Sequence record: MH494197.1
DNA: 64,000 bases
Direction: 5' to 3' (one strand)
DNA from: Escherichia phage CMSTMSU
The position numbers and the translations under genes are program-made. Positions 4,170 through 21,805 of the stretch are shown piece by piece (within the stretch, counting starts at the first letter, position 1; the number at the start of each line of letters is the position of its first letter). The notes beneath the pieces are model-generated. The model made no database searches and was not told the origin of the DNA. It worked only from the letters and a program-made list of their open reading frames with translations.

Positions 4170-4322
4170 ATTACCATTAGCATCAAATACTTGATCATTG
4201 ATACCCTGTACTGTTCTTTTCCTTTAACTGTCACATTATGAGTGACGTCTAAGCCACCATATATTTTCTTTGACATACATATCCCTTGTAATTTAGATAT
4301 TAGTTACTGTATTTATGAATGT

Positions 4323-12216: not shown

Positions 12217-12317
12217 GAAAAACTGAAATAACACATGGAGTTCTTTTAAATTAATAAAAGTATTATTATTCTTATGAAAGTATTTATCATGAACTCCAGT
12301 TTATTGCTTCAAATGAA

Positions 12318-12505
12318 TCAATAACCTTTTTGTGCTACTAGCTCACGGTATTGAGCACGAGTTAGAACACCTTGTTTACGTAGAGCTTGAAGACCTGTTA
12401 GGGTTTCTGCTTTACGTAGTTCGAAAATACGTTGTTCTTTAGATTGAATAACTTTAACTTTCTTAACTTTTGCTACTGGTTCTTTTTCTTAGGTTGCTTT
12501 GCCAT
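12318..12505 (-). CDS. small basic protein (frameshifted)
   Basis: RBS GGAGA 8 nt upstream of ATG; MAKQPKKKEPVAKVKKVKV...LRKQGVLTRAQYRELVAQKGY after correcting one indel. Confidence 0.3.
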
Positions 12506-12569
12506 GAGTATTTCTCCTTTGTTGTTAACAATATTATTATATCATGTATGGGACGAATGTCCCACATTA

Positions 12570-14010
12570 TTACATATTTTCTTCAGCAAATTCTGCCAGT
12601 GGTGAACGAACAACACCTTCTAGTTCGATTACACGACAACCGTCCCAGTTCTTGAACTTCTCGGTAACATAAGTTAGACCGCTGTTTACTGGACTAATGA
12701 ACTTAGAGTCAATCTGACTCAAGTTACCCATAATAACCACTTTACAGTTCATTCCTGCACGAGTCAAGATTGTTTTGCCTGAGCAGGTGTGATGTTCTGG
12801 AATTCATCAACTACTAGGATAGTATTTGTGAAAGAACGACCACGAACGAAGTTTAGTGCTTTGAACTGGATAACATTGCGTTTCATGATTTCTTCGATAC
12901 TGCCTTGTGGGTTAGCATCATCTTTGTGTAGGAATTCCAACGCATCAATTGCTGCACCACAGAAAGGAATCACTTTCTCTGCTTCAGATCCGGTAAGAAA
13001 CCAATGTCTTCGAATTGGGAATCTTGTGTTTTGGAGAAGATGATACGGTCGTATTTTTCTTCTCTAGTACTAGCTCAGTGCAGTTGCAATAGTGATTAGT
13101 GTTTTACCAGTACCTGCTGAACCTAACAGTACTGTTAGATGAACATCAGGATCTAAAATACTGTTGATTGCTAGTGCTTGCTGAATATTCTTAGCCTTGA
13201 TATCCCACACTTTAGCACGTAAAGCAACTGATTGTCCAACGTCTTGGAATACAAGAATATCTTCTGGTGTTAAAGTACCATCATCTTCTTCAATTGCAGA
13301 TTGACCTTCGTACACAAATAGAACATCAGCATTATCATATAGGTAATCACCGATGCAAATATTTTGTGGCATGATATGTTCAATCAAGCTTTTGGAATGT
13401 AGTGGTACAAACGACGACCAACTTGTTCAGACTGAATAGATACATCAGTCAGATTACTATACACATCCCAGAAATGTAGATCAAGGTGATGTTGACCAAT
13501 GTGAATCAAATCACTATCACCAATCACGATATCATGACGGTAATCTTGAACTTCCACCCCGTAGCTTAGAGCCTTGATACGCATATTGATATCACGGGTA
13601 ACCAGTACTGAATCAGTTGCTAATGCTACTAAAATGATTTTATCATCTGGTACTGTGCTTTTTAGAAGAGTTTGAACTTTCTCTTCGTTACCAGCAGTAC
13701 GAATTAGTGCTTCCGCTTCTTCGCTTGTAATAACAAACAATTTGCTTTCAGGACTCATATTAGTATGAACATCAGCAATATTAACACCAGTACTACTAAT
13801 TTCTTCATGTGATGCATCAGAAAGGATAGCTTCAATGTTACGGATTGCAACACGAGCATCACGGGAAACATCCACATTACGACTTTTGATTGAATCCAAT
13901 TCTTCAAGTACTGTGAACGGTAGAATGATAGCTGCTCCATCAAAAGCAATGGTAGCATTTGGATCAGATAGTAGTACGTTTGTGTCAATTGTATATTTTT
14001 CATAAAACAT
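12570..14010 (-). CDS. phoH: PhoH-like ATPase with N-terminal PIN domain (frameshift-fragmented)
   Basis: Walker A GSAGTGKTLITIAT; PIN-like N-terminus DTNVLLSDP ... TVLEELD; fragments 13384-14010, 13070-13387, 12764-12973, 12570-12767. Confidence 0.8.
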
Positions 14011-14082
14011 CCTTGAGTTATGAGTACATCCTTGTACTCGACTAATGGTTAGTGACTCGAATATTACATGCTCGGTTCGTAT

Positions 14083-14364
14083 TCAACATAACATCTTGAA
14101 CCACGAGCCTTTTCCTCCCAGCATTCCGTAAACTAGTTGACCAATTGATACTGGATCTCTTGATAACCCATTACGAACTTCACCAGTACTGGTTTTATAA
14201 GTAAATGAGCATTTATTTTCATTACATTGACCTAATCCTGTTACAGTCGCTGTATTGTAATGAATATTGTAACGTTTAGTGTTCTCATGATATGAACTGA
14301 ACCATAGAACACCTATACCTAACAGTGTTGTGCAAATAAGACTCTTGATATGTGTTGAAATCAT
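14083..14364 (-). CDS. small secreted/membrane protein
   Basis: 93 aa with N-terminal hydrophobic signal segment and Cys pairs. Confidence 0.4.
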   Translation of the reverse strand: MISTHIKSLICTTLLGIGVLWFSSYHENTKRYNIHYNTATVTGLGQCNENKCSFTYKTSTGEVRNGLSRDPVSIGQLVYGMLGGKGSWFKMLC

Positions 14365-14369
14365 AGTGC

Positions 14370-14678
14370 ATTAAATCCATTAGTTAAGTAAGTTTCAATA
14401 TTAACTTTCCTACTGGATTACTACTATGTACATAGTATTTAAATGGTTCTTTAATATTATGCTCAAACATATAATCAATTAGAAATTTGGCAAAAGTGTA
14501 TCCAGTTTTCTCATCTGTACTCAAGTCACCCAAGTCATGGTCAAATGAGACAAATGCTGGAATTCCATTTTGATTACGTATTCACATGCACTTTCGTAGT
14601 CACGACACAATACCATCTCTTGGTCAGGATAATATTTTGATAATCACGAATATCATCCAAGAACATTGAGTACGACAT
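14370..14678 (-). CDS. hypothetical protein (frameshifted)
   Basis: RBS AGGAG then MSYSMFLDDIRDYQNIILTKRW...; continues in a second frame with FDHDLGD. Confidence 0.3.
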
Positions 14679-14833
14679 TTTAAACTCCTATAGATAGCTG
14701 ATTAGTAAGTTTTCTTTTTGTACAAGATACTCTAATTCTTGTTTCGCAGTTCCGATGAAGTTCTGTGTCATAAGATTATTATATCCTGCTTCTCGATTTT
14801 GTCCCTTCGAATAACGAGAGATGTGACATAAAT

Positions 14834-15238
14834 TTACACCAGCCACCTCTGCACTAGCATGTTTGCCATATGCATAATTATCACGAAGTTTTTAAGTTCA
14901 GCATAAGTCATTTCATAACTATAGCTATGTGAGTGACCCTCTGGAAACAATTCAAGTGATTTTAATGGAGACAGGCGACTTTTGTCAATGATATAGTTCA
15001 TTTCTTCTTGAACTTCACGCTGTAACGCATCTTCTAATGACTTATCAGTACTTTCAACTGTTCCACCACATGCACCCAACAATCCATCCCAACGCACTTG
15101 TAGGAGTACTAAGTTAACCACTGGGATATCATTTAGTTCATAACCAGCGTATGGGGTACATTCTTTTGCATAAAAGAAACAGAATACAAAATTTGCACGT
15201 TTCCCCATTTGCCCCAGTGGTACTTCCGCTTTACTCAT
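14834..15238 (-). CDS. possible Nudix-like hydrolase
   Basis: GGTVESTDKSLEDALQREVQEE resembles a Nudix box but spacing is non-canonical. Confidence 0.3.
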   Translation of the reverse strand: MSKAEVPLGQMGKRANFVFCFFYAKECTPYAGYELNDIPVVNLVLLQVRWDGLLGACGGTVESTDKSLEDALQREVQEEMNYIIDKSRLSPLKSLELFPEGHSHSYSYEMTYAELKNFVIIMHMANMLVQRWLV

Positions 15239-15307
15239 CGCATTCGTTCCTTAATTATAGTTTCAACCTGTGGAATTGCTTTCGTCGCAGGTTTGATGAC
15301 CTTCTCA

Positions 15308-15709
15308 TTAAAAGAAAATCATTATCATTTTTCGGATGTTAACATTTACACTATAGCATGGAAGTGCACCAGCTAGTCTGGACCATACCAGTACTGTATC
15401 ACTACTTCCAATAACTACAACTGTATCATTTTCTGTGAGACTTTTCAACACTTCATTTCGTTCTTCATAAATGGGGAGACGTACCCCATCAACGTAGCGA
15501 TGATACTCACCAATCATCACTACATTTGGTTTTGCAAAAACATCAGCTTTAGGAATATATGGTTCATAACCACAATTAATGACATTGTAATCATCAGTAT
15601 TAATAGAAAAGTTCTCAATTACTTCACATAAATTGCCGTGTAGTTTGAGTTCGGTTCCACCAATTCTAGTATATAGATCATCCATATTAGAAGTCATGTG
15701 TAAAAACAA
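15308..15709 (-). CDS. hypothetical protein
   Basis: 133 aa ORF. Confidence 0.3.
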   Translation of the reverse strand: MFLHMTSNMDDLYTRIGGTELKLHGNLCEVIENFSINTDDYNVINCGYEPYIPKADVFAKPNVVMIGEYHRYVDGVRLPIYEERNEVLKSLTENDTVVVIGSSDTVLVWSRLAGALPCYSVNVNIRKMIMIFF

Positions 15710-15900
15710 TCACCATACAAATCTTCTAATGATTTAATAAAGTAATGCATTTCATTAGGATGACATTCACCTAATTTTACACGCAATGTATTATAAAATG
15801 AATGAACTACATGATACTTAGAACTAAGTCGTGCAATGTTACAAACATCATTAATTTTGAAATTGTCCCACAACCCATCATCAAAGCGGAATGGTTCCAT
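15694..15900 (-). CDS. hypothetical protein
   Basis: 68 aa ORF, may extend upstream by frameshift. Confidence 0.25.
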   Translation of the reverse strand: MEPFRFDDGLWDNFKINDVCNIARLSSKYHVVHSFYNTLRVKLGECHPNEMHYFIKSLEDLYGDCFYT

Positions 15901-16214
15901 CCCGCTCTCAACTGAAAGACCTGCCCTGAAATTATAAGTAATCTTTTGTTCCCAGCATTTTGTATAAATTTATCTGATATCACATTTACTCCTTATATAA
16001 AAAGTATCAAGTTTAATACTAAAAATACAATGATAGCAATATGATAGACATACATCCACTTATTGTGTCCATGTTTATTACCATTCCTGAATTCTCGGTA
16101 TAAACATTTAGTGTGATTGTATAACACCACACAAATAAACACAACTATGAAACAAAAATCCACTCGTAAATTATGTATGCCATCAGATACACTCTCTCTT
16201 TATAATTATTATTC

Positions 16215-16804
16215 TCAGTATTTCAAAATATCAAACTCTGGACTAACACTTGTTACATTATCACTAACAATTTTGAAAATAGACTCAACACGTTCATGTA
16301 ACTGAACATTGGTTTCTTCTTGAACTTCAATATACGCTGACATGGATGCAATTGCATGATAAGTCCCACTTCCGACAGCAGTAATTTGTGTTTTAGGTTG
16401 CAGTACTGAAAAGTCTTCTTGAACTTCATAAATCGTATGATTATGAAGAATAATGAACTGACCACCACCAACATCTTGTGATGCATCACGAGCACCCATT
16501 CATCTTTAAACATTTGACGAATGATAGGAATAACTTTCAGTACTAGATACTGTGAAAAGGTTTCCTGCAACTTGTTCTGGTAGAGTTAGGTTGTAATTCA
16601 ACAACTGTCCCATGCGGAACGAGGTAGTATACCCAACGCCATTACTTCTTTAGTGCGAGAAAGACCATCCTCATTGAGTTTAATGAACTCTTTCTCAAAC
16701 ACTTTAGGCTCAGTTTGAACTGCTTTAGTGAAACCATTGCTTCCTAATTTATCACCAGCGATGAAGGAAGATGTGCCATTTGTGTGAGCGATAATACAAG
16801 TCAT
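16215..16804 (-). CDS. HslV-like Ntn-hydrolase peptidase (frameshift-fragmented)
   Basis: N-terminus MTCIIAHTNGTSSFIAGDKLGSNG parallels HslV [24 protein letters not shown] with Thr2 nucleophile; C-part ITAVGSGTYHAIASMSAY parallels IAIGSGGPYAQAAARAL. Confidence 0.55.
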
Positions 16805-17070
16805 GAAATAACTCCTTGTGCAAAAGTGCCGTATACAACCAGTATATCAGCAACCCTAGTGTAAGTAAACATGCTCCATAAGAAATTGATAGAACATAGT
16901 AAATTCCTGCTTCGAACTTGGATGCAAATTTGTGTGTACTGGAATCCATAAAACCACGTTTGTAGTCTTTATAGATGAAACATGTTAAAACTAATGTAAT
17001 GCAATATACTATAGTTGTTGCATAAAAACAAGAGATGTTAAGTTTTGTAAATTTGTCATAGTTTATACAC
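16752..17070 (-). CDS. predicted membrane protein
   Basis: ORF 16752-16949 with hydrophobic helices, N-terminal extension in another frame. Confidence 0.3.
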
Positions 17071-17150
17071 TCTAGTGTATGTGAACTTATAACAAAGGAT
17101 GTACCACTTTATCATCCTCTTATTATAATATTATTATTTTGTATCTAATA

Positions 17151-17522
17151 CTAATGAATGATACTACCTAATTCGAGCAACTGATCTGGTGTAAGTCTCA
17201 CAACTTCATTACCACGAACCTTACTAACCTCCACTAACAATTCTGGAGGAATACCATTCGCTGCATATAACGCAAATAGAACACCAACCTTAGTTGATAG
17301 CTGTTCAGCAAAAATAGTCATTTGGCGAACTGATATGTATGTGTCATCACTATTTCGTGCTTTACTTTCGATTGACACATTATGTAGACCTAGAATTGAG
17401 TCCTTCATCATGTATCTGTTTTCTATATTAGCACTAAAGAATGCGATAGTGCAAGAAGAATTACAATATCTTTCAACAATAATTGTTAAATTGTTATCAT
17501 TGACAAAATTTCCTAGTGCCAC
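17151..17522 (-). CDS. hypothetical protein
   Basis: 123 aa ORF. Confidence 0.3.
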   Translation of the reverse strand: MALGNFVNDNNLTIIVERYCNSSCTIAFFSANIENRYMMKDSILGLHNVSIESKARNSDDTYISVRQMTIFAEQLSTKVGVLFALYAANGIPPELLVEVSKVRGNEVVRLTPDQLLELGSIIH

Positions 17523-17880
17523 TCCGCATCAAAATCACCACCGTGACGTAATGATGATAGTGTCAAATGGGTGTGTTTCTCTAAAACCATCAAACGGTTT
17601 ACAGTATTTTCAGTTAAAGTTGAAATGAACTGAACTGTCTGTTTAGATTCATCATATCTAATGATACTTTTCTTTCAACACCTGCACTTGCAGGAAAGTT
17701 AATTAAGAAAATAATAATAATAGATTGGATGATTTCTTTACATAATCGTACCACTGGTTAACCCTCTTAGTTGATTGTTGATTACATAAATAATATTATA
17801 GGAAGATTTAACTTAAGTCAAATTGTTTTTATATCACTTCACAAATTCCCTCACAGAATCACCCGCCTTTTTACCTTCTT

Positions 17881-17910
17881 TTGAATGATTATATCACACT
17901 AATGTATAAT
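17881..17910 (+). promoter_or_regulatory. sigma70-like promoter candidate on plus strand
   Basis: TTGAAT - 18 nt - TG TATAAT in a roughly 400 bp gene-free intergenic region. Confidence 0.25.
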
Positions 17911-18003
17911 GTCTATGCTTTTGTCAACAAATAACGTGGTAGTACTGAACTCGTTGTTGGTTCTAAGAGTTTTCCTGAAATTCAAACAAGTTGTGTACTA
18001 ACA

Positions 18004-18030
18004 AAGAAAAAGGAGCCTTATGGCTCTTTT
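18004..18030. terminator. bidirectional terminator-like hairpin
   Basis: GAGCC-ttat-GGCTC stem flanked by A-run upstream and T-run downstream, at the 3' end of minus gene 18035-18295. Confidence 0.5.
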
Positions 18031-18034
18031 TATT

Positions 18035-18295
18035 CTACGTATTAAGTTTCTGACAAATCATGTCAGCTTCAACACGGTCTTTATAATAAATGGTAAAACC
18101 AAATTTACCAGTTACTTTATACTCTTTACAAGTTAAACAATTTACAATGTAGTACTTGTTGTTTTGTGCTGAAAATCGTACTTCATGATTACGCATCACT
18201 GGTGGAGTAGTATTATCATTTAATACCATCATCACTAAGAGTACAAGAATCACAACTGCAAATGGAATACCTAAAATCAAGAAAGTCAAAGTCAC
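18035..18295 (-). CDS. small membrane-anchored protein
   Basis: 86 aa, N-terminal transmembrane helix, GTG start overlapping the cd stop. Confidence 0.4.
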   Translation of the reverse strand: MTLTFLILGIPFAVVILVLLVMMVLNDNTTPPVMRNHEVRFSAQNNKYYIVNCLTCKEYKVTGKFGFTIYYKDRVEADMICQKLNT

Positions 18296-18767
18296 AACCC
18301 CTTATCATAAATGCAATTTACAATAATCCCAGCATCTTCCAGTACTTTAATAGCTTCTGGTGGAGTGCGAGGATAACTTTGTGATAAATCACGCGAGCAA
18401 TACCACTTCCCGCGATCAACTTAGAACAAGTATAGCATGGTTGCAGCGTTGTGTAAAGTGTTGCTCCCTGACGTTCGGTAGGTGAACTGTATAACAATGC
18501 ATTCATTTCAGCATGGATTTCATGGATATTACTCCATTCATGGTGTTCATGCTTTGCGTCATCGCTAACCCAGTCTTGGAAACGTCCACCATTAACTAAG
18601 TGCTCATTAGCGTCACAGCAGTTAGGTTGTTTAGATGGAGTGCCATTATAACCAGTACTCAATACTCGGTTATTTTTAACAATAACACAACCAACTTTCT
18701 GTGAAATGCATTTACTCTCTTCAGCCACGACTTCGGCTATCTTCAACCACGTCAAGTGTTTCATCAT
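18292..18767 (-). CDS. cd: deoxycytidylate (dCMP) deaminase
   Basis: ESKCISQKVGCVI, STGYNG, HAEMNAL and PCYTCSKLI zinc motifs with a T4 Cd-like insert; C-terminus frameshifted. Confidence 0.8.
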
Positions 18768-19085
18768 ATACTCCTAGGGATTGTAATTTGGTTTTACAGT
18801 TCGAATGTATTTTAAGAACACGAAGGTAGTTTAGCACATCTGATTCTTCAATGTCAAATGGTTTCGCTGCATAAACGTCCCATGCTCCCATTAATTCTGT
18901 ACAGAACTTGATATCACCCGAACCCAGCAACTTGTCACGGAATTGTTTAAACTCGATTTCTTCATCGGATAATGAAAACCCAAATCCATAAAGCACATAC
19001 CACCAGCACTGAAGCATGACCCAGATGATGTACCAATTAAAATATCATCCATCCCATATAAGCCGTAAAAATATTGGAGTACCAA
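18721..19085 (-). CDS. hypothetical protein
   Basis: overlapping ORFs 18891-19085 and 18721-19017, probably one gene. Confidence 0.3.
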
Positions 19086-19246
19086 GTACTAAGTTTACTT
19101 CGGTGATGATATTTAAGAACATTCTTCTTGATATTTACATCTAATGAATTAGCTGTTGATATCACTTTTTGGTTAAAATAATAGTTTTGTTCAAATTACT
19201 CAACCATACTTTAGTATCAGTTGGGCTAAGAGCAGTGTATTTCATA

Positions 19247-19612
19247 TTAATCCTCTAAATTCCATTCATCAACCATAGTTGAGCATAATTCCATGTGTCG
19301 GAAATATTTCTCATTAAGTGAATATGGACTCTTATAAAATTGTCTTACATCAGTGAATATATCATAGTTTCTATATATAAATGACATATTTTTATTCATG
19401 AATTCTATAATCTTCCATAACTTTTCTGTATCGTTTTGTATAGTTTCTGCACTCAATCCCGTCAATTTCATTAGACGCTTGATTTTAAAGCCAGACTCTA
19501 TTGACGTATTGTTATGCTTGGTTAAGTAACTATAGCCAATGGAACTATATATTAGTTCAATACTATCAGTACTGGTTATTGTTCCTAGAAATGATTTTAA
19601 ATTTCTATTCAA
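19247..19612 (-). CDS. hypothetical protein
   Basis: 121 aa ORF. Confidence 0.35.
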   Translation of the reverse strand: MNRNLKSFLGTITSTDSIELIYSSIGYSYLTKHNNTSIESGFKIKRLMKLTGLSAETIQNDTEKLWKIIEFMNKNMSFIYRNYDIFTDVRQFYKSPYSLNEKYFRHMELCSTMVDEWNLED

Positions 19613-19881
19613 CCAATACCATTTTTGTTCTTGTTATAGCAAGAATACCACTTTTAACTATAGCTATTGCCTCTGAATTTAAACTTTCGGCAAATTCATC
19701 AATTAAAACATGTGATTGTAAAATAAATCACTTTGATCTTCAGATAATTTATATTGCTGCATATCCACCTACCCTATTAACAATTACACCTTGGGTATTT
19801 ACCTTGTATGGATCAATTTTTGATCAATAATTTTTGATATACAGCAAATAAAATGGGAATCATTAAAGATTCCCTAAGTAA

Positions 19882-20656
19882 TTATTTCTGGAATGGAGTG
19901 TACTGGTACTGCTCACAATCAGATACAGTTAGTACACCTTCATCATAACCGTACTGGAGAATAAGATCAAATGCTTTATCAACCATAGCTACAACGTCTT
20001 TGTAACGAACGATGGTGTGTGCCTGTTTCTCAACTGCTTTCATAATACCCATCAGCATCCAGCGGCCTTCATCAGTGTGAAGTTTAGCAAAACGAGGACG
20101 TTTAGTTGCTGCCATAATGTCAGTCCATTCTGCTTTAAACACTGATGGACGTTTAGGAATATCATACAGAGTTGTTGGGAATGTTACGTTGTTTTTCTTC
20201 ATAGCTTCAGCTTGTGCAGCACGATAACCTTGACGGAATAGTGGGTGCTGTGATTTTAGCTGTTCATTGTTAAAAACTACTTTGTTTTAAACGCGTCATA
20301 ACCTTCTTTGTATTGTGCATTAGACATATTATTCTTTCCCTCGTCAGTACTGATGAATTTTTTATCTGAGAATGTGCCGTGTTCTTGACGCATAGCTTCT
20401 GCGTGTTGAACTGCGTTAATTGGATTAATGTTCTTTTAATAAGAACTTCTTGCATTAATTCGAGAACAATAGAAAAACCATTGAGTACTCGTTCTGCCTC
20501 GTCAACACCTTTCAATTCAATAGCCACTGCACTAATCTGATCTAATGCGGTATTAATAAACTCTGAATCATCTAACACATCATTGACTTCAGTATTATTA
20601 CGTACAAGAACTTTCATATAATCTCCAGAAATAAGATGCCCCAAATGAGGCATCAA
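19882..20656 (-). CDS. hypothetical protein(s) (frameshift-fragmented)
   Basis: ORFs 20270-20656 and 19882-20202 joined by readable sequence in alternative frames. Confidence 0.3.
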
Positions 20657-20668
20657 ATGAAATTCAAA

Positions 20669-21363
20669 TTAGACCCACTCTTCCACGCCACCGCGACGTT
20701 TGACGAGATACTTACCTTCTTCGTTGCGTGGACCAAGGATGATACCATCAATGAAACCATGTTCACCGTATTCGAGTGCTTCTTCAGCGTTCAACCACAA
20801 GTCACGGTCTGCATCTTTCAGTAGTTGTTCGTGCGATACACCAACTGCTTCAGCAATTTCTTTCGTCAATAGTGTGTTCAATGCGTCAGAGTGTTTCAAA
20901 GAAATCTTCTGATCGGTAATCAGACCCTGAGTACCGGAACTCACTTGGTGACACATGAAGTAAGAACGCTTACCACCTAGACGGAAACCTTTAGTTCCAA
21001 CTACTGATTGTGTATAGCAACCCATTGATGCTGCATAACCCATTACTACTGTACGGATAGGAGATACACAAGACTTAGCAATGTCAGCGATACCCAAACC
21101 TGCGTGTACTGAACCACCGGAGAACTAATGTAGAAGGTAATTGGTTCAGAACCCTGAGAATCCAACCACACCAATTGTTGCTTGATGATATGTGCCATTT
21201 GGTCATTGAAGTCAGTATCAAGGAAAATGATACGGTCTTGCATCATACGAGATGCTAGGTCATAAGTACGTTCTGCACCATTAACTTTTTCAACTACATA
21301 AGGAATAGAAATGTTGCGAACTTCACCACCAGCATAACCACCAAAATTGAATTGTTCAACCAT
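20669..21363 (-). CDS. clpP: ClpP-like ATP-dependent protease proteolytic subunit
   Basis: GAERTYDLASRMMQDRIIFL, YISSP and GYAASMGCY match ClpP; a 1-nt deletion near 21100 splits the frame. Confidence 0.8.
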
Positions 21364-21399
21364 TGTTATTTTCCTCTATTGTTTCATTGTTGTGAGTAT

Positions 21400-21805
21400 T
21401 ATATCACAGTGTTCGTATTTGTCTACAAGTTTCTTAAAAATCTAGTAAACCGCAAATTGTATGTTTATTAAACATATCGTGGTCAATCTTTAACAACTTA
21501 ACCATAGCATTATCATACACCGTAGAGTCGGTAATGTCAAACAAAGAATTTGTGTAATAACGTTCATTTTCTACATAAATGTATAAATCATTTGATTTGT
21601 CAAGATCTTCATAGAAGTTAGCATCAAAGTACTCTGCATTTCCATCAATCCAAACCTCAACTGAATCATCATCTAAGCAGTAGTTTCTTGCTTCTTTGAA
21701 TATATTTCCAGCTTTCTGGCTGCACTGGAGTAATGTTTATAACCATTAATCACGTACTTGATTTCATCATTGTACTCAATTATATATACAACAACATTTT
21801 CCATC
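21400..21805 (-). CDS. hypothetical protein (frameshifted)
   Basis: manual translation MENVVVYIIEYNDEIKYVINGYK... continuing in a second frame. Confidence 0.25.

Follow-up and report, generated by a model that had tools for sequence, protein, structure and literature searches.

The late promoters of bacteriophage T4 (TATAAATA) are used by host RNA polymerase together with gp55, gp33, and the gp45 clamp. The moron cassettes of lambdoid phages are promoter–gene–terminator units inserted among the genes of another transcription unit. In the Rak2-like jumbo phages CBB and GAP32, the motif ATAAATA has been reported before structural genes (PMC5259590), and a literature search for transcriptomes or mapped promoters of Asteriusvirus and Rak2-like phages returned only the MEME-based motif predictions of the CBB paper (PMC5259590). 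Here, we analyze positions 17640 to 18034 of a 64,000-nt stretch of Escherichia phage CMSTMSU (MH494197.1; this whole stretch is referred to as the window), an interval that appears to combine the start of a gene for a ClpP-like protein, a minus-strand control region, and a late gene cassette on the opposite strand that has lost its gene.

A 2-kb stretch around this interval is 97 to 99% identical to eight jumbo coliphages (WPEC5, vB_Ec-M-J, Ecwhy_1, fEgEco12, EC.P1, Turkey3, WPEC3, and TH47), which with the window make up the clade referred to below. The PBECO4/121Q/G17 group (genus Asteriusvirus) aligns to the right of ~18000 only, at ~80% identity. By these alignments, which give 98 to 99% identity for WPEC5, fEgEco12, and Ecwhy_1, the window comes from an Asteriusvirus-type jumbo coliphage. 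Its minus strand is the gene strand, holding 64 of the 66 open reading frames (ORFs) of at least 110 amino acids (aa). An earlier note on this DNA had described ~400 bp without a minus-strand ORF. This holds for ~280 bp, 17755 to 18034 (the gap), whereas 17640 to 17754, judged from the intact 202-aa gene of the relatives and a 46-aa ORF in the window itself, is the 5′ part of the ClpP-like gene.

We read the interval, with a probability of roughly 60%, as a composite of that gene start, a minus-strand control region, and the shell of a late cassette on the other strand, from which an orphan RNA of ~235 nt is predicted. The terminator at 18004 to 18034 would end the upstream minus-strand operon, and two minus-strand promoters (P1, distal, and P2, proximal) with a Shine–Dalgarno (SD) sequence would begin transcription anew, into the ClpP-like gene. 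On the plus strand, the late promoter at 17785 to 17800 would be read by host RNA polymerase with a phage gp55-like late sigma factor. Late in infection, this would at most produce a noncoding RNA that starts at ~17798 and stops at ~18031. Such an RNA would be antisense to both promoters and to the P1 leader; it could therefore interfere with P1 and P2, and any effect it has would be of that kind. We regard a neutral relic as the likeliest case, since the RNA has no SD-preceded ORF and no notable structure and its body tolerates substitutions. All the elements belong to known kinds; the late promoter is the one that the earlier note missed.

The probable late promoter, the terminator, and the absent virion gene

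17785–17800, plus strand: T4-type late promoter CATAAATAATATTATA with its ATAAATA core at 17786–17792, predicted start at ~17798 by analogy with T4
18004–18034, no single strand: bidirectional intrinsic terminator, made of an A-run, GGAGCC-TTAT-GGCTC(C), and a T-run

The window is strongly depleted of the late-promoter motif. ATAAATA occurs three times against 40.4 ± 6.3 expected, a depletion of about 13-fold; the complete T4 motif is absent (11.8 expected); and TAAATA is the most depleted of all hexamers. A sequencing artifact was rejected as the source of this depletion; the counts are no different in WPEC5, and we take the depletion as real. All three ATAAATA copies are intergenic. The copy under study lies on the plus strand as CATAAATA (17785–17792) and carries the exact heptamer. 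The other two are on the minus strand and are likely late promoters within an otherwise early/middle region: one at 4310 to 4316, again as CATAAATA, lies just after nrdG and 34 nt before the gene for an 899-aa hypothetical protein (WPEC5 CDS0482), and one at 12281 to 12287 lies ~190 nt upstream of WPEC5 CDS0502 and overlaps a dubious ORF call of 36 aa.

The structural modules of related phages show where the motif is used. In phAPEC6, 18 sites are found in 40 kb, 14 of them within the 10.5% of the DNA that lies between genes; the sites share the orientation of the genes that follow, mostly at a distance of 17 to 65 nt from their starts, the gene for the major head protein included. The structural module of WPEC5, a member of the window's own clade, has a like pattern (13 sites in 30 kb, of which three read CATAAATA), which brings the two modules to 31 sites in 70 kb, 24 intergenic. 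The capsid gene promoter in these modules is CTATAAATAATATCATA, and the window site ACATAAATAATATTATAGG is nearly identical to the capsid promoter CTATAAATAATATCATACTG. Scored with a position weight matrix, the window site reaches 12.5, and true sites, scored leave-one-out, range from −8 to 19. A gp55-like late sigma factor, homologous to phAPEC6 gp237c (95.3–95.7% identity), is encoded by all eight clade relatives; in WPEC5 CDS0383 is labeled '55 superfamily', and the gp55-like gene lies outside the 64-kb window.

Within the phAPEC6 module, ~1.6 kb is sparsely annotated (12500–14160 of locus L015). The ATAAATA at 14154 to 14160 on the minus strand of this locus is 546 nt from the next annotated start, and the homologous WPEC5 site stands 32 nt before a 1.7-kb tail fiber gene. 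The phAPEC6 site could be another orphan late promoter, or the stretch may hold an unannotated gene.

At the locus itself, more distant relatives carry a gene where the window has none. In 22 records of the PBECO4/121Q/G17 type, the slot is filled by a plus-strand gene for a 125-aa Ig-like virion structural protein (phrog_33171) that ends at the terminator, and a homologue of 139 aa occupies this place in EJP2, which is the outgroup according to three flanking proteins. No homologue was found in the window. In G17, PBECO4, 121Q, and EJP2, the 125- to 139-aa gene stands between the late promoter on one side and the terminator on the other. The homologous ATAAATA site lies upstream of this gene in both G17, as TATAAATA, and EJP2; a second one in EJP2 precedes the other plus-strand gene. 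The convergent arrangement of the Ig-like gene with a small membrane-protein gene extends to CBB, GAP32, XbC2, and Kaldavass. In the window clade, the late-promoter block is invariant, and we found no SD-preceded ORF on the plus strand between 17798 and 18031, so that the late promoter drives no gene here.

At the terminator, the earlier note had seen a GAGCC/GGCTC hairpin with a T-run, which is indeed present at 18012 to 18031. In relatives the element reads AAAAAGGAGCC-N4-GGCTCCTTTTTTT and gives a U-tract after a GC-rich stem-loop on both strands; the window copy lacks one C and several Ts by assembly error and is called on the minus strand. The terminator is conserved across the genus: the stem is the same in the window clade, G17, EJP2, and ph0011, whereas the loops differ (TTAT, TTGT, ATAT, TCAT, and ATAA), and all three substitutions within the clade sit in the loop. 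The G17 record annotates the same element as a terminator. The hairpin (18012–18026) begins 9 nt past the stop codon (18035–18037) of a minus-strand 86-aa gene, which the terminator is predicted to end; ancestrally, it would also have ended the plus-strand Ig-like gene.

By parsimony, we infer that the window clade lost the Ig-like gene rather than that the other phages gained it. A decayed copy exists in ph0011, which keeps a remnant of ~60 codons (…GRLPFSI…IHKIKLNN…; 1830–2000 of locus L010). The protein identities to G17 are 51% for the ClpP-like protein, to the left, and 95% for dCMP deaminase, to the right. A mosaic breakpoint relative to the G17/PBECO4 group lies at ~17999 to 18007, where DNA similarity vanishes exactly at the terminator. 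This sharp drop to the left of the terminator suggests allelic replacement. Two labels at this locus look like annotation slips: WPEC3 names a 40-aa minus-strand ORF in the gap 'Sir2-like protein' (947–1069 of locus L004), and CRJP21 (OQ708376) gives the same label to the Ig-like gene.

The earlier note had proposed a plus-strand promoter-to-terminator unit without a gene, the only such unit in the window. In outline this probably stands, with a T4-type late promoter ~115 nt farther upstream in place of the one proposed and with another length: ~235 nt, predicted from the core at 17786 to 17792, instead of a transcript of ~100 nt.

Gene-strand promoters and other readings of the gap

17915–17888, minus strand: P1, distal sigma70-type promoter, TAGACA-16-(TG)aTATAAT, an 11/12 match with TG
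17821–17793, minus strand: P2, proximal sigma70-like promoter, TTGACT-17-TAATAT
17831–17887, no single strand: variable spacer tract, the predicted 5′ untranslated region of P1 transcripts and a segment of the body of the predicted late plus-strand RNA
17881–17910, plus strand: TTGAAT-18-TATAAT of the earlier note, judged to be a chance match or a mirror image of P1

P1 belongs to a repeated family, nGACA-N11-TGTGATATAAT. The exact 11-mer occurs four times in the window, always on the gene strand; with up to one mismatch there are 14 matches (6.6 expected in total), of which 11 lie on the minus strand. Each of the gene-strand members listed (minus-strand sites 56586, 52722, 43660, 41968, 35928, 29041, 21408, and 17898) has an nGACA −35 element ~11 nt upstream, and the members other than P1 are mostly followed by a candidate SD and start codon within ~25 to 60 nt. 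This family may give the early/middle promoter consensus of the phage group. Another sequence, TTGACTTAAGTTAAA, was rejected as a repeated phage motif (10 matches vs 7.6 expected).

Both promoters have counterparts in G17, which has TTGACA-17-TGaTATGAT at the P1-homologous place and keeps P2 as TTGACT-17-TATTAT amid otherwise diverged sequence. Among the nine near-identical genomes of the clade, none of the 76 columns of the P2 block (17755–17830) and none of the 28 columns of P1 vary, and the spacers vary at 8 of 57 and 6 of 88 columns. P1 differs from the G17 sequence by a 14-nt indel (window 17897–17922 vs ~2022–2050 of locus L003). Its extra bases resemble a 7-nt tandem duplication (TAATGTA/TAATGTC); the indel shifts the ancestral TTGACA (17927–17922) and provides the TAGACA that now has the correct spacing.

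Several points weigh against the reading of the interval as the shell of a late cassette. P2 overlaps the late-promoter block, so that the constraint on 17755 to 17830 may belong to either element; with the block covering the P2 −10 element and start region, P2 by itself could account for the conservation. Invariance of the late promoter is in any case weak evidence of selection, because the clade is only 1 to 4% diverged. In G17, ATAAATA stands 187 nt before the gene start, compared with the usual 17 to 65 nt. Loss of the Ig-like gene may instead be allelic replacement from a donor that never had it, and searches of the gap for an Ig-like remnant (blastn at word size 7, and tblastn with the G17 and EJP2 proteins) gave nothing convincing. 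Finally, all promoter and terminator activity is read from motifs.

One alternative is that the gap is purely a minus-strand control region, with an active terminator, P1, P2, and SD and a silent ATAAATA, either a dead relic or kept through its overlap with P2, and no plus-strand RNA. That the late-promoter block abuts the P2 −10 hexamer (17793–17798) and covers the predicted P2 start is consistent with such a view, as are the lack of a plus-strand gene downstream and the first base of the site, a C where T is commoner. Yet CATAAATA precedes 3 of 13 late-gene starts in WPEC5, and the extended match to the capsid promoter covers 15 of 16 bases. Moreover, in a window purged ~13-fold of the motif, an inert perfect copy in the ancestral position is not to be expected. 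We therefore hold a silent site to be possible but rather unlikely.

A further reading accepts the late shell and gives it a function: the shell would be kept as a cis-antisense switch, acting through the RNA or the act of transcription, that shuts off P1 and P2, as early/middle promoters of the ClpP-like operon, once late transcription begins. This seems unlikely to us, the neutral relic being preferred for the reasons given above. If true, a coding cassette would have been converted to a regulatory noncoding unit. More speculatively, if the orphan RNA is made at all, the locus would be a simple system in which to study convergent late transcription silencing early promoters in a T4-like program.

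The small RNA proposed in the earlier note fares less well. In that model, a sigma70 promoter at 17881 to 17910 fires at ~17917 and the hairpin stops transcription, giving an early RNA of ~100 to 115 nt. The match exists (10/12, with a perfect TATAAT), the terminator should also act on plus-strand transcripts, with 7 to 10 Ts in its T-run in relatives, and 17887 to 17990 is fairly conserved within the clade. Such matches, however, occur at background frequency: 41 promoter-like sites were found in 8 kb against 36.9 expected. The plus-strand match is not a proper extended −10 promoter because its TG abuts the hexamer. Its −35 element (17881–17886) is altered in six of the eight closest relatives (TGGAAT in four, TTGGAT in one, and TTGTAT in one), the variable columns 17882 and 17884 falling within TTGAAT and in the variable tract, and a promoter scan of WPEC5 did not call it. 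The same DNA is occupied by the stronger, family-type P1 on the other strand; the plus-strand TATAAT lies in the clade-specific 14-nt indel, whose extra bases create it. The proposed promoter is best seen as the mirror image of a gene-strand promoter.

The RNA itself gives no better support to that model. The proposed body without the terminator folds no better than chance (z = +0.75), and the full late plus-strand RNA has z = −1.42. With Rfam, at gathering and permissive thresholds, no match passed E < 0.1; the best (E = 0.11) covered the terminator hairpin only. The region is kept only in the eight near-identical relatives, and a gene fills the slot in all others. Blastn of the gap against phages matched those eight genomes alone, and the gap had no match in Escherichia coli genomes. 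No wider relatives having been found, covariation analysis was impossible, as nine near-identical sequences give no covariation power. A small RNA from the sigma70-like site is thus improbable.

17937–18003, no single strand: imperfect inverted repeat with 19-nt arms and a 29-nt spacer, within ~88 nt of clade-specific sequence

Beside the terminator, the inverted repeat might act on the minus strand as a back-up terminator, an element of RNA stability or processing, in either case for read-through transcripts, or a protein-binding repeat upstream of P1. Its hairpin is more stable on the minus-strand RNA (−16.7 kcal/mol) than on the plus-strand RNA (−12.4), the minus-strand fold of 17916 to 18034 has z = −3.35 (one of 200 shuffles was as good), and the U-rich GUUAUUUGUUG follows. 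As a U-tract this tail is poor, however, and WPEC3 weakens the hairpin to −8.5 without compensatory changes. The sequence is confined to this clade, with no covariation to test, and we doubt that the hairpin is a functional element.

17909–18001, plus strand: 30-aa ORF (28 aa from 17915), candidate peptide MSMLLSTNNVVVLNSLLVLRVFLKFKQVVY, probably not translated

The 28-codon ORF from 17915 named in the earlier note exists, as does its 30-codon form from 17909, both ending at 18001, but a hydrophobic micropeptide made from a late or leaderless transcript is very improbable: the frame is intact up to the last codons in eight of nine genomes and is annotated in WPEC5, and a start of transcription at 17915 would put the AUG at the 5′ end of a leaderless mRNA, yet no SD was found before any plus-strand start in the unit (17798–18031), although neighboring and late genes have strong ones, the three clade substitutions (M3I, S6L, and V18D, the last in the hydrophobic core) are all nonsynonymous with no synonymous change, WPEC3 lacks the ATG at 17915 and has a 3′ frameshift, six of the seven annotated relatives make no call, and PHROGs and Pfam gave no matches for the two small plus-strand ORFs.

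The ClpP-like gene, its neighbor, and the assembly

17151–17754, minus strand: ClpP-like/COG3904 secreted-protein gene, starting at a GTG (17754) and encoding 202 aa in relatives, frameshifted in this assembly
17762–17766, minus strand: Shine–Dalgarno GAGGG, 7 nt ahead of the ClpP-like GTG, read directly from the sequence
17681–17694, no single strand: palindrome CCTGCACTTGCAGG, on the minus strand CCT GCA AGT GCA GG, the codons for P-A-S-A-G
18035–18295, minus strand: gene for a small membrane protein of 86 to 88 aa (phrog_19937), the upstream neighbor ended by the terminator

Intact 202-aa homologues of the ClpP-like protein are encoded by relatives including WPEC5 (CDS0513), and their GTG start maps to 17754 of the window. 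The protein matches phrog_26024 'protease' at 4e−70 and the Pfam family CLP_protease at threshold. As sequenced, the window has a 46-aa minus-strand ORF at 17614 to 17754, and alignment of the gene shows five homopolymer or CCAGG deletions in the window copy. The G17 equivalent of the SD is GAGGA, 8 nt ahead of an ATG. IMG/VR searches with peptide patterns of the ClpP-like protein or with a 22-mer gave no match, and a metagenome search with a 20-mer gave a single unrelated chance match.

The palindrome near 17680 was noted earlier as a possible operator. It is there, at 17681 to 17694, but it lies in the COG3904 coding sequence, 60 to 75 nt downstream of the start codon, and its P-A-S-A-G codons close the predicted signal peptide (…LINFPASAGVE…). 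Four of its five stem pairs are dictated by the codons, and G17 spells the same PASAG as CCAGCCAGTGCTGG. Because it sits in signal-peptide coding sequence, we do not regard it as an operator.

The broken frame of the ClpP-like gene is due to assembly errors of the nanopore type. In a 7-kb alignment with WPEC5 (14513–21490) there are 36 gaps, every one a deletion in the window and none the other way around; 34 are in homopolymer runs and two at CCAGG. The 64-kb window contains no CCWGG (CCAGG/CCTGG) against 34 expected, whereas the relatives do carry it, and A6 and T6 runs are depleted. Such a pattern, with its miscalls at Dcm sites, is typical of nanopore assemblies that have not been polished, and it evidently extends over the whole window, where the deletions break up many minus-strand ORFs. 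The practical value of the present analysis is mostly corrective, in that the gene-free look of the interval and many short ORFs of the window stem from assembly deletions in homopolymers and at Dcm sites.

Other features of the window composition were recorded. Neither the PstI site CTGCAG (0 vs 17.5 expected) nor the NcoI site CCATGG (0 vs 13.8) occurs in the window, and the relatives' loci lack both as well. In the window, there is strong enrichment of AGTAC/GTACT (629 vs 420 expected) and depletion of GTACA. Avoidance of restriction sites, or a bias related to DNA modification, may underlie these features. A scan for tRNA and tmRNA genes found none.

Comparison with known regulatory units

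The late promoter of the gap has seven of the eight bases of the T4 consensus, with ATAAATA exact, and an A/T-rich stretch downstream. As in the T4 and CBB/GAP32 systems, the motif is avoided elsewhere and, in close relatives, stands a few tens of nucleotides before late or structural genes; as in T4, the clade encodes a gp55-like sigma factor. Unlike T4 late promoters, the site has no gene downstream and has C as its first base, and its activity and start are predicted only. Homologues of gp33 and gp45 were not found in CBB's group (PMC5259590), and given this, activation in these phages may differ from that in T4.

P1 resembles the extended −10 sigma70 promoters (TGnTATAAT) that serve as early/middle promoters in phages, with TGaTATAAT, an nGACA −35 element, a spacing of 16 to 17 nt, and repetition on the gene strand before many genes of the window. 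It differs from the other members of its family in lying ~126 nt from its gene, with P2 in between, where they lie a few tens of nucleotides away. Taken with the late motif, this suggests a usable promoter grammar for Asteriusvirus: nGACA-N11-TGTGATATAAT for early/middle and ATAAATA for late transcription.

The terminator shares with Rho-independent bidirectional terminators between convergent genes a GC-rich 6-bp stem flanked by an A-run and a T-run. It lies between convergent genes in the relatives, with the stem kept and the loop free to vary. It departs from these terminators in that the window clade retains only one gene of the convergent pair, and in that assembly errors have shortened the stem and T-run of the window copy.

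As a whole, the late cassette resembles a moron in being self-contained, with a promoter and terminator of its own, and in lying on the opposite strand within a long one-directional gene array, variably present among relatives. It is unlike morons in its cargo, which in the relatives is a late virion decoration protein rather than a lysogenic-conversion gene. Here that cargo is missing, and the locus would offer a clean example from nature of an emptied late gene cassette, with promoter and terminator left in place.

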